This document shows, piece after piece, positions 19,408-22,400 of a DNA stretch of 40,267 bases. Both the position numbers and the translations under genes were made by a program. The notes under the pieces were generated by a model. The model saw only the letters and a list, made by a program, of their open reading frames with translations, ran no database searches and had not been told where the DNA came from. Each line of letters starts with the position of its first letter. Position 1 is the stretch's first letter. Origin of the DNA: Chlamydiota bacterium (GTDB lineage: Bacteria; Chlamydiota; Chlamydiia; Chlamydiales; JAJFMK01); the NCBI GenBank assembly GCA_021772215.1, contig JAJFMK010000154.1, positions 1-40,267 on the forward strand, in the 5' to 3' direction.

Positions 19408-22400
19408 ATGCCCATAGCTTCAAAACGGGAGGCATTAATGGCTAATACTCTACCTTTTTCCAAAGACTTTCTAGATAGTGGAAGATCCCTCCTCAAAGAA
19501 AAGCTTGAAGCTAACCTTGCACGAGAGGGAGCTAAGATCGACCCAATCCAAAAAACGATCAAGCTAATTGATGGCATTTTAAAATCTACTTCTGCAGATA
19601 GAGCAGACTCCCTATCAAACTTACGAGGTCGACTCTCCTACCCTCAAGAAATCTCCTCTAAAGAGATCTCCATTCTCGTCGAAGATCTTAAGAGCCTCAG
19701 CAAAACCATCGATGAATTAGCGCCCCCTCTTATCAATCTAGCTATCTTCTATGAAGATGCTGCCAGCCAAGATCTCCCCCAATCCACGGTACGGATTAGA
19801 GGTGATCTCATCGAGCCCCACCTGATCACACAGAAGCTCGCCTTAAAGCTACTCTCTCGCAACCGCTACGGTGATATCCTAAAATCTAACGAATCTGGTA
19901 ACCATCCTGTCATCTCATTTGGCGGCGTCCATCTAAAAAGTGCCACAGAAAATGACCCCCTAGACACCGGAATGGAGACAGCTGTCTACCTCCTCCACAC
20001 GCTCCTCCTAGGCGAAGAGAACGCCGGCATTGCCCCTTCTTCACTCCTCTGTCTTGAAAATGTTGAAATCAAAGAGCTTGAAGAAAGCGTACAGCTAAAT
20101 GAGACAGAGCAAGATCACCTTGAAGAGGCTGTCTGGAACAACCAAAGAAGCCTCTTCTACCGCCACCATCCACAGCTCACAGCAGCAGCTAAACCCCGCT
20201 CCTTTGCCCTGCAAGCTTCGATGAGTGTTGAAGGAGAACGGCTTGACGAACTTCTTGATCGTAAAGAAAAGCTCTCCTTCGATCCAGAGAATTTCAGCGC
20301 ACTTATTCTAGCCAGCTTCCTAACAATACCATCGGATAACAAACCTGACAACTTCATGGTCGCCTACGACCACTCAAAAGGAAAGGTTGTCGCCAGGCTA
20401 GTCGGGATTGATAACGATATGGTTTTTGCCTATCCGCTAAACGTCATCCCTGCCGGCGGCGGCAAAAAAGAACATGTCGTTTCACTAAAAAACGCTCTCT
20501 ATTTCTTCGATCAGATGATGAGAAAACCAGTAGACCCTAACGTTAGGAAAAGAATAGGAAACCTTAATCCTCTTCTCCTAGGCATAGAGTGGGCAGCAGC
20601 AGTTGCTAAGCAAAATCAGCGTTATGAAAGACTCTCAATCGAAAAAAAAGATCAAGCCTCTCTCCCACTCCGCTTCACCCCAAGTACCCTTCATAACCTG
20701 ATTGAAAACCTCCAGACGCTACAGAAGATTCTATCTGACCCAAGCACAAAATTTGTGACACATCAAGAGCTCTTTCGCCACCTCTTCCCCGTGATCGAAC
20801 GTTTCTATCGCGGATTGGGTGAAGATATGGGATCTACAAAGGAGAAGGTAGAAAACCTCTTTTCGATTGGACTTCCTCCTTTAGAGAAGTACCTCAACTT
20901 GAGAGAGCCCCTAGAAGATGGCCGTACTGTTGCAGAAGCCCTCGATTCCGAGAATAAAACAGCAAGGGCCCAAAAAGAAGAGAGAAAATCCTCAATCGAA
21001 GATCTCTCTTTAACTATTCTTGCTAGCACTGATCTCTCTCTCCTACCCCCTCAGGATCAAGCTGCCCTTCTCGAACTTGTCGCTTCCCATTTTCCTCAAA
21101 TCGCAGATAGAAATGATCTCCACCCAAGCTGGCAATCCAATGGATTAGCTCACCTGCTGGTTAAAGAGGGCTGCACAAAAAAAACACTGCTTTTTCTACA
21201 CAGCCTCGGTATCGACATCGCATCATTAAATGAACAGCATGAAACTATTCTTTTCGCAATGGTGAGAGATGATAAGCGGTATTGTGACCATCTAACCGAC
21301 GAGCTGCTAAAACTGCTTCCTCTAGAAACTCAAAATAGTAACGGCCTCACCGCTTTAGACGTCGCTATGGCAGAAAAATCTATCCCCAGTTTCAACCGAC
21401 TCATTCGAGCAGGAGCTGGGACCCACGCAAGCTCAACAGCCGCTTTAAGCTTTTACAATGAGACTGTCAAGGACTCAACTGACCCCGAACTCCAACAATC
21501 TTTTCAGAAGCTCGCTCAAATTAACAGCCTTGTTAACTGGAAAATGGCTTGGGAAACTATCCTGCCCAAGCAGTGCCAAGAAGGGACACCCGTTAAGAGC
21601 GCCTTAAATGGAAATAGAGCACTAACCCAAGAAGCTGCTAAGCAGCTCTGGACACAATCTGGAGCTATCAACAAAGTTAACACGTCCGGAAGGCGCTCTG
21701 TAGGAAGAATCACCATCGGCCAATTTACCCTCTACTTCAAGCAGGCCCCAGAGCTTCCCGGCTTAGAACAGGCTGTAGGTACCCTAACACAGCAGATCAT
21801 GGGTTTTGGAACACCCCACACCGACTTGGTCAGCATTAACGGCGTTCCCTACCTCGTGTCTCAAGGTATTGAAGGACTTAATTTACAAGAAGTCATCGAA
21901 AAAAATCCGGAACAGATCGCCCAACTTGATAAAACTGCCCTTTCTCAGCTACTGCTCATGACGATGCTGATTAACCCTGAAGATGGCAAACCAGACAATT
22001 ACATCGTTCAGCCAAAACCCAACCAAAAGGGTTATCAAATCGTCAGTATTGATAATGACCACGCCTTTGTGCCAAGCGTCGCAAAGGAGACGTTCTTTCA
22101 GAGCAAGAAAAACCGCGTTCAGGTCAAGACGATTCTCTACTGCCTCGAACAGATGAATACACCTATCGACCCTAAAGTGCGTGACCAGTTCCTCAACCAC
22201 GACCCGGCAGAGATCCTATCCTCTTGGCTAGGTCATCTCACGGCTGTTCATTCTATTTATCACAGCCTATTTACAGACAAAGAGCGAAAACAGCTCTTCA
22301 ACACCCACGGAACCTATGTAGGCGTTCCCTTTCGGCCAGAAATGGTAACGGCTCTATACCGTAAGATGGTCCAGATGCAGTTTCTCTTAAGCAGACATCA

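Follow-up and report, generated by a model that had tools for sequence, protein, structure and literature searches.

Few sources have yielded as much new biochemistry of host manipulation as effectors with a kinase fold. The survey 'Pan-kinome of Legionella' (PMC9758233) reported 13 novel kinase-like families, and the OpiA/AnkK and MavQ PI3K-like families were included in it. The present analysis concerns a gene on a 40,267-nucleotide (nt) stretch of DNA from a Chlamydiota bacterium (contig JAJFMK010000154.1 of assembly GCA_021772215.1; hereafter, the window), in which a single open reading frame (ORF) encodes a giant protein with two kinase-like domains, termed D1 and D2. What the D1/D2 family has in common with the families of PMC9758233 is the concept of divergent, in the present case putative, kinase-fold effectors of amoeba-associated bacteria, missed by standard profiles and found by remote homology together with AlphaFold. 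However, 'ankyrin' and 'tandem' occur nowhere in the text of that survey, and none of its 13 novel families could be mapped onto the D1/D2 family. The latter is rated here as a new family of a known kind, that of protein-kinase-like (PKL) fold effectors. Full-text literature searches returned no paper describing the D1/D2 domain. A study of F-box and leucine-rich repeat (LRR) expansion in chlamydiae mentions neither kinases nor this domain, and an atlas of Legionella effectors mentions neither PI4K nor this domain.

Two groups of described kinases are central to the comparison: (i) the type II phosphatidylinositol (PI) 4-kinases (PI4KII alpha and beta; PDB 4hne, 4hnd, and 4wtv; PF00454), the best single-domain structural match of both models built here, which resemble D1 and D2 in the catalytic loop (D-x-x-x-D-N-[WY]-[LI]), the metal site (I-D-N-x-x-A-F), and the C-lobe helices downstream; and (ii) the Ser/Thr protein kinases (PF00069), which resemble them in the fold and in the order of the beta3 Lys, the alphaC Glu, the catalytic loop, and the Mg-binding Asp. 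The reading favoured here, with a probability of about 0.68, is that the gene encodes a giant modular protein in which two active PKL-fold phosphotransferases are joined by ankyrin repeats and delivered to a protist host.

Two copies of a predicted kinase fold

An earlier note on this DNA, drawn from its letters alone, had described two segments carrying the same four motifs in the same order. All eight motifs are present, in one frame of the single ORF. The ORF, the domains, and the motifs are as follows:

19408 to 26688, plus strand: single ORF of 2426 amino acids (aa), comprising an N-terminal region, D1, a degenerate ankyrin linker, D2, an LRR array, Sel1 repeats, and a Tox-ODYAM1 tail
19696 to 20976, plus strand: kinase-like domain D1, aa 97-523 (family hidden Markov model [HMM], E 3e-91), with an insert of ~70 aa in the N-lobe
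21124 to 21561, plus strand: degenerate ankyrin-type helical repeats, ~aa 573-718, between D1 and D2; helix pairs predicted by AlphaFold2 (AF2)
21379 to 22650, plus strand: kinase-like domain D2, HMM envelope aa 658-1081, fold core ~aa 727-1065 (family HMM, E 1e-147)
19921 to 19941, plus strand: D1 motif GGVHLKS, aa 172-178
aa 188-193, plus strand: D1 motif GMETAV
aa 309-318, plus strand: D1 motif SDNKPDNFMV
aa 331-340, plus strand: D1 motif LVGIDNDMVF
aa 773-779, plus strand: D2 motif FTLYFKQ
aa 785-790, plus strand: D2 motif GLEQAV
aa 858-867, plus strand: D2 motif EDGKPDNYIV
22039 to 22068, plus strand: D2 motif IVSIDNDHAF, aa 878-887

When the two segments are aligned to each other by BLASTP, aa 141-517 match aa 741-1067 with an E-value of 6e-14 and 26% identity over 216 residues, in a stretch that spans the hinge to the C-lobe helices. 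Judged by sequence, the resemblance of D1 and D2 is one of homology and not of chance. The span of 19910-22070 first assigned to the duplication covers the motif-bearing cores, while the full domains extend further, to ~aa 97-523 and ~aa 658-1081.

Two AF2 models were built: one of D2 (aa 741-1067) from a 13-sequence alignment, with a mean predicted local distance difference test score (pLDDT) of 82 and a predicted TM-score (pTM) of 0.80; and one of the D1-ankyrin-D2 unit (aa 97-1081) from 23 sequences, with a pLDDT of 86.5 and a pTM of 0.73. In a Foldseek comparison with the PDB, the D2 model gave 112 matches at E<=1e-3, and all 50 of the 50 matches listed are protein-kinase-like folds. Human PI4KII alpha (4hne/4hnd) ranks first (E 9e-6, TM-score normalised to the query [TMq] 0.46), and PI4KII beta, JNK1, CASK, CaMKII, CtkA of Helicobacter pylori, and APH(3') come next. 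The model of the whole unit matches RNase L first, followed by nine PI4KII chains, CtkA, and HipA. In a library of viral structures, Foldseek ranks highest two phage proteins whose annotation is that of a PI3K/PI4K catalytic domain. Thus, structure comparisons show kinase folds, whereas scans of sequence-profile libraries gave none. The earlier note had named a lack of kinase-fold resemblance, by profile or by structure, as grounds for refutation, and the structure comparisons show the opposite. Its kinase-fold assignment holds on these models, in which both D1 and D2 are predicted to adopt the PKL fold, so that structure prediction settles what sequence methods miss.

RNase L (PDB 4o1o and 4oav) owes its first rank with the larger model to its pairing of ankyrin repeats with a kinase fold. 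What is matched is the architecture and nothing more (TMq 0.12-0.14, rmsd >23); the protein carries a single pseudokinase next to a KEN nuclease domain, and no sequence relation links it to D1 or D2. CtkA (3akj/3akk), a secreted kinase, and the HipA family (2wiu, 3dnv) are bacterial atypical kinase folds matched at E 1e-4 to 2e-3, with a TM-score normalised to the target of at most 0.42. They differ from D1 and D2 in being small single-domain proteins with no detected sequence similarity, and they rank below PI4KII.

The ankyrin repeats that were proposed to separate the two copies are backed by the model and by homologues, but in this protein they are degenerate, as Pfam Ank_2 matches the 2426-aa sequence only at E 0.031, below the cut-off. 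The AF2 model of the D1-ankyrin-D2 unit shows repeated helix pairs in the linker, and of 31 homologues scanned, 16 match Ank_2 at E-values of up to 1, the best being 4e-9. The ankyrin identity of the linker is supported by these helix pairs and homologues, together with RNase L as the top Foldseek match.

Catalytic residues and relation to known kinases

Conservation was counted over 82 two-domain representatives of the family, with ungapped subsets for the D1 Lys and Glu columns, and residues were placed on elements of the fold according to the predicted order of secondary structure in the AF2 models. The candidate catalytic residues are the following:

19936 to 19938, plus strand: D1 Lys177, candidate ATP-anchoring lysine of beta3, in predicted strand 174-178 (Lys in 57/61 ungapped)
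19975 to 19977, plus strand: D1 Glu190, candidate alphaC glutamate, in predicted helix aa 187-201 (Glu in 61/63 ungapped)
20335 to 20352, plus strand: D1 catalytic loop D310-N-K312-P-D-N315, after predicted alphaE (D in 80/82, K in 71/82, N in 80/82)
20407 to 20418, plus strand: D1 I334-D335-N336-D337, putative metal-binding equivalent of DFG, after predicted beta7 (I in 81, D in 80, N in 78, and D in 77 of 82)
21739 to 21741, plus strand: D2 Lys778, candidate beta3 lysine, at the end of predicted strand 33-39 in model numbering (Lys in 81/82)
21766 to 21768, plus strand: D2 Glu787, candidate alphaC glutamate, in predicted helix 44-58 in model numbering (Glu in 77/82)
21982 to 21999, plus strand: D2 catalytic loop D859-G-K861-P-D-N864 (D in 80/82; K in 55/82, with Asn in 17; N in 81/82)
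22048 to 22059, plus strand: D2 I881-D882-N883-D884, putative equivalent of DFG (D in 80, N in 79, and D in 73, plus E in 9, of 82)

In the AF2 model, D1 runs through beta-strands, alphaC, a long hairpin with the helical insert, alphaE, the catalytic loop, beta6, beta7, and IDND. In both copies, the Lys ends the second strand pair of the N-lobe (beta3) and the Glu lies in the next helix (alphaC); D-x-K-P-x-N directly follows an alphaE-like helix, and IDND directly follows the beta6-beta7 hairpin. The assignment of these residues to the beta3 Lys, the alphaC Glu, the catalytic loop, and the DFG equivalent, which had been made from motif order and spacing, agrees with the predicted secondary structure in both copies. 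Since the full set is kept, namely the beta3 Lys, the alphaC Glu, the catalytic Asp, the Asn, and the metal-binding Asp of IDND, both D1 and D2 are probably active phosphotransferases, dependent on ATP and Mg, rather than dead scaffolds.

D1 and D2 agree with the Ser/Thr protein kinases in the catalytic loop, where D-x-K-P-x-N equals HRD-L-K-P-E-N from the Asp onward, and dozens of these kinases are matched by the D2 model in Foldseek at E ~1e-4. The His-Arg of HRD and the Phe-Gly of DFG are indeed replaced, as first noted: PSD or PED stands for HRD and IDND for DFG, so that only the D-x-K-P-x-N part is shared. D1 and D2 further differ from these kinases in having no HMM match to them, in the absence of GxGxxG, and in a different helical C-lobe.

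With regard to the type II PI 4-kinases, sequence comparison was made with hhalign, using a PI4KII alpha catalytic-domain sequence verified against PDB 4hnd. A search for homologues to deepen its profile listed only vertebrates, all but a few of them 85-99% identical, and brought a small gain (effective number of sequences ~1.4). The alignment is in register, with PEDGKPDNYI placed on NTDRGNDNWL and IDNDHAF on IDNGLAF of PI4KII alpha, and it continues through the activation segment and the C-lobe helices. The D1 profile matches PI4KII at E 3e-4 to 1e-3, with a score of 32.4 versus a maximum of 18.4 in 20 shuffles; three ORFs from Pkinase loci of the same genome score 17-20, at the level of the shuffled controls. 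The D1 profile thus lends moderate sequence support to an affinity with PI4KII, while the affinity as a whole appears weak in sequence and confined to the C-lobe. D1 and D2 also differ from PI4KII in several respects. The D+2 position of the catalytic loop holds Lys in D1 and D2 and Gly in PI4KII, and an extra Asp is conserved after IDN. The CCPCC palmitoylation insert (SSPSS in the crystallised PI4KII alpha) is found in neither domain. The N-lobes are unrelated in sequence, the TM-score of the structural match is only ~0.46, PF00454 is carried by true PI4KII proteins and matched by no D1/D2 member scanned, and D1 and D2 form a tandem pair within giant bacterial proteins. On the predicted structures, D1/D2 is treated as a new PKL family that is structurally closest to the type II PI 4-kinases and belongs to neither PF00454 nor Pkinase.

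With type II PI 4-kinases as the closest structures on record, a lipid substrate is a live alternative. One or both domains would then be phosphoinositide kinases that mimic the type II PI 4-kinase of the host and make phosphatidylinositol 4-phosphate (PI4P), or another phosphoinositide, on the membrane of the inclusion or vacuole, thereby controlling membrane identity. The chlamydial inclusion, like the Legionella vacuole, relies on PI4P. This alternative draws on PI4KII alpha and beta as the best single-domain matches of two independent models, on the phage PI3K/PI4K-domain proteins that top the viral library, and on the hhalign register of D-x-x-x-D-N, IDN(D/G)xAF, and the C-lobe helices, in which D1 reaches E 3e-4 and the controls fall far lower. 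It is nevertheless less likely than not, for no member matches PF00454 at E<=1 to 10, the palmitoylation insert is absent from the D1 and D2 sequences, the N-lobes show no sequence similarity, and the Lys at D+2 (DxKPxN) is a signature of Ser/Thr protein kinases. Moreover, plant PI4KII-type proteins act as protein kinases, and affinity of fold does not fix the substrate. Ser/Thr residues of host proteins are tentatively favoured as substrates over phosphoinositides, at a little under even odds. The PI4KII affinity raises the idea that environmental chlamydiae, like other symbionts of amoebae, may carry a PI4KII-like enzyme of their own, and not only recruit that of the host.

Several observations weigh against the interpretation of D1 and D2 as active kinases. 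No kinase family was matched in sequence and profile searches of Pfam, NCBIfam, or the PDB, even at E<=10. On the whole protein, Pfam (E<=1) gave only LRR_6, Sel1, and Tox-ODYAM1, with neither Pkinase PF00069 nor PF00454; at E<=10, nine domains scanned in isolation, drawn from the present genome and from others, matched nothing kinase-like, these two families included. For 31 homologues, the listing of the 25 Pfam families shared most widely contains no kinase family, the NCBIfam scan of the protein gave no match, and phmmer with D1 and D2, as well as a 13-sequence profile, found nothing meaningful in the PDB. Ordinary Pkinase genes of the same genome match Pfam at up to E 4e-48. (Two weak CotH matches in the Pfam scans, at 0.0014 and 0.066, were treated as noise.) The glycine-rich GxGxxG loop was not found in either copy: D2 has only N-x-x-G-R-R-x-V, in which G761 is the sole conserved Gly, and no column of the corresponding D1 region is conserved at >=80% in the 82 representatives. 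This loop is missing in many atypical PKL families too. In addition, about one D2 representative in three has another residue, frequently Asn, in place of the catalytic-loop Lys. The D2 profile matches PI4KII only marginally (E 0.011, score 22.3 versus 21.0 for the best shuffle), hhalign of the N-lobes by themselves against PI4KII yields no signal, and the Foldseek TM-scores are modest (0.25-0.47). Finally, intact kinase folds can perform other chemistry, for instance glutamylation by SidJ and AMPylation by SelO.

It follows from the last point that D1 and D2 could use the kinase fold for another nucleotide-dependent reaction, such as AMPylation, glutamylation, or some other transfer, as in SelO and SidJ. 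The conserved atypical motifs would fit such a role: the extra Asp of IDND is near-invariant (77/82 in D1 and 73/82 in D2), the Gly-rich loop is lacking, and a loop of the D2 N-lobe carries a conserved Arg-Arg; furthermore, the family falls outside every kinase profile scanned. This explanation is considered quite improbable, as all members of the canonical K/E/D/N/D set are there, each at its canonical position, and neither SidJ nor SelO is among the 50 listed matches of either Foldseek search of the PDB.

Family, age of the duplication, and paralogs

A word-indexed search with D2 found 11 homologues. An exhaustive profile search of 1.84 billion representatives, clustered at 50% identity, brought the number of clusters to 1706 at E<=1e-3, of which 775 pass E<=1e-30. 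The matched proteins are mostly 1000-5000 aa long and align to the profile in two stretches. Of 154 family proteins rescanned locally, 108 hold two copies and no more, the N-terminal one of the weaker D1 type and the other of the stronger D2 type. A tree of 82 D1 and 82 D2 domains unites every D1 domain in a single clade (support 1.0), which also takes in one stray D2. Because D1 and D2 form separate clades and most members have two copies, the duplication is ancient, and the D1-ankyrin-D2 tandem is the ancestral layout of the family. A recent internal duplication was rejected, since the two clades remain separate across phyla. The view of the locus as an internal duplication therefore stands insofar as the copies are homologous; the event is not internal to this gene, as the tandem is common to most of a large family. 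The architecture is both fixed and unusual, with two kinase folds that have intact catalytic residues bridged by ankyrin repeats. The family is large, has expanded to numerous copies in certain genomes of endosymbionts, and escapes sequence searches of Pfam, NCBIfam, and the PDB. Once it is defined, thousands of giant proteins now labelled 'hypothetical' could be better annotated, and studies of kinase evolution would gain a new deep branch.

The distribution of the family is patchy. Within the order of the window's organism, 5 of 41 genomes carry it, its own included. Elsewhere, a scan of a genome collection with a narrow pattern found it in metagenome-assembled genomes (MAGs) labelled Paracaedibacteraceae, Dependentiae, Alphaproteobacteria, and Gammaproteobacteria; that scan returned MAGs only, with no named Legionella. 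Such lineages are typically protist-associated. Up to 12 family loci occur per genome, with 12 in one Paracaedibacteraceae MAG and 7 in one gammaproteobacterial MAG. On JAIBEV010000012.1, which belongs to the Paracaedibacteraceae MAG with 12 loci, a single locus of 13 kb contains three family genes in head-to-tail order, a sign that the family has expanded by local tandem duplication in a lineage of amoeba symbionts. The patchy distribution is compatible with horizontally exchanged effector genes.

Two further members are found in the genome of the window. The first, on contig C35 (6106-11103, 1665 aa), is 80% identical over 1657 aa without gaps. It stops after the LRRs and lacks the Sel1 repeats and the Tox-ODYAM1 tail, so the gene in the window consists of the same core plus a C-terminal add-on of ~760 aa. 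The second, on contig C203 (2466-8357, minus strand), encodes at least 1963 aa, its 5' end lying off the contig, and has one detected kinase-like domain as well as LRRs. In the comparison with the C35 paralog, the ratio of nonsynonymous (dN) to synonymous (dS) substitution rates is 0.09 in D1, 0.11 in D2, 0.07 in the linker, and 0.54 in the LRR array, while dS is 0.48 in the LRR array and 0.7-0.9 in the kinase-like domains. The values for the LRR array fit diversifying or relaxed selection combined with homogenisation of the repeats.

These ratios bear on the proposal that D1, or both domains, are catalytically dead pseudokinases serving as scaffolds or allosteric partners. Tandem pairs of a kinase and a pseudokinase are a known design, as in the JAKs, and RNase L, the top match of the larger model, is itself an ankyrin-pseudokinase protein. 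D1 also has its large N-lobe insert and aligns worse in the N-lobe, where the column of the beta3 Lys is gapped in 21/82 sequences. On the other hand, D1 keeps D310, N315, and D335 in 80/82 sequences and the K and E in nearly all ungapped ones, its dN/dS is 0.09, and near-invariant catalytic residues are not expected in a pure scaffold. A dead pseudokinase in either copy thus seems unlikely, given the near-invariant catalytic residues and the strong purifying selection in both copies, and among the explanations weighed here this one is the least probable. The option of 'kinase plus pseudokinase' left open by the earlier note is likewise disfavoured, both copies keeping their catalytic residues across the family at a dN/dS of ~0.1.

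C-terminal modules, delivery, and genomic surroundings

Downstream of D2, the protein carries three further modules, and a promoter-like element precedes the gene:

23497 to 24837, plus strand: ribonuclease-inhibitor-type LRR array (Pfam LRR_6, E 7e-52, 10 stretches)
25000 to 25599, plus strand: Sel1/TPR-like repeats (Pfam Sel1, E 1.2e-11, 3 stretches)
25615 to 26394, plus strand: C-terminal Tox-ODYAM1, aa 2070-2329 (Pfam PF15642, E 3.7e-10 to 2.7e-11)
19361 to 19390, upstream of the 2426-aa ORF: promoter-like TTTCCA-18-TATAAT

Recurrent Pfam partners in 31 family members are LRR (18), ankyrin (16), F-box-like (6), and Sel1 (3). The Tox-ODYAM1 match passes the Pfam cut-off (39.8-43.5 bits versus 25) and covers profile positions 133-380 of 385. 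The name stands for 'Toxin in Odyssella and Amoebophilus', and a coiled-coil-like stretch precedes the domain. As this tail comes from the catalogue of polymorphic toxins, the protein could act in or between bacteria, for instance as a polymorphic toxin in bacterial conflict, and not be directed at a host. That explanation is highly doubtful in view of the eukaryote-type modules (ankyrin, ribonuclease-inhibitor-type LRR, and Sel1, with F-box-like domains in 6 of 31 homologues), the spread of the family over obligate intracellular or protist-associated lineages, and the C35 paralog, which has no toxin tail and keeps the kinase-like domains.

The host assembly comprises 2.37 Mb in 325 contigs and is 78% complete. 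Its RpoB is ~80% identical to proteins of Parachlamydia, Parachlamydiaceae, Waddlia, and 'Chlamydiales bacterium'; a Chlam_OMP6 match lies above the cut-off, compared with none in 14 control genomes; and an ATPase of the YscN/FliI type scores 637.8 bits. These findings identify the host as an environmental chlamydia that probably has type III secretion machinery. Judged solely by the organism and by its own eukaryote-like modules, the protein would be delivered into a protist host cell, probably by type III secretion. According to the favoured reading of two active phosphotransferases, the ankyrin bridge would hold D1 and D2 as a fixed pair, the variable C-terminal modules (here LRR, Sel1, and Tox-ODYAM1) would aim the D1-ankyrin-D2 unit at host components, and the delivered protein would phosphorylate host targets.

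A bolder and rather improbable extension is that the D1-ankyrin-D2 unit forms the conserved core of a large, hitherto undescribed superfamily of host-targeted enzymes, a distant sister of the eukaryotic type II PI 4-kinases. Horizontal transfer would have spread it among bacteria that live with protists (Chlamydiota, Paracaedibacteraceae, Dependentiae, and Gammaproteobacteria), and its two active sites, always paired, would work in sequence or on two different substrates. For example, one site might act on a lipid and the other on a protein, or one might prime the other. If true, this would represent a new two-headed kinase mechanism for the remodelling of host membranes.

An inverted repeat of 22 nt, 95% complementary, lies at 17118-17139 and 26708-26729. 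It exactly encloses a three-gene block composed of an HNH-like gene, a small acidic ORF, and the giant kinase-like gene. Duplication of this cassette as a unit with the paralog was rejected, as the neighbours of the C35 paralog differ. The block is flanked by seven ORFs of ~1070-1310 aa, located at 212-11315 (plus strand) and 26798-39982 (minus strand). The three upstream encode proteins with LVIVD repeats and He_PIG immunoglobulin-like (Ig) domains, and the four downstream, on the minus strand, are of similar size to these.

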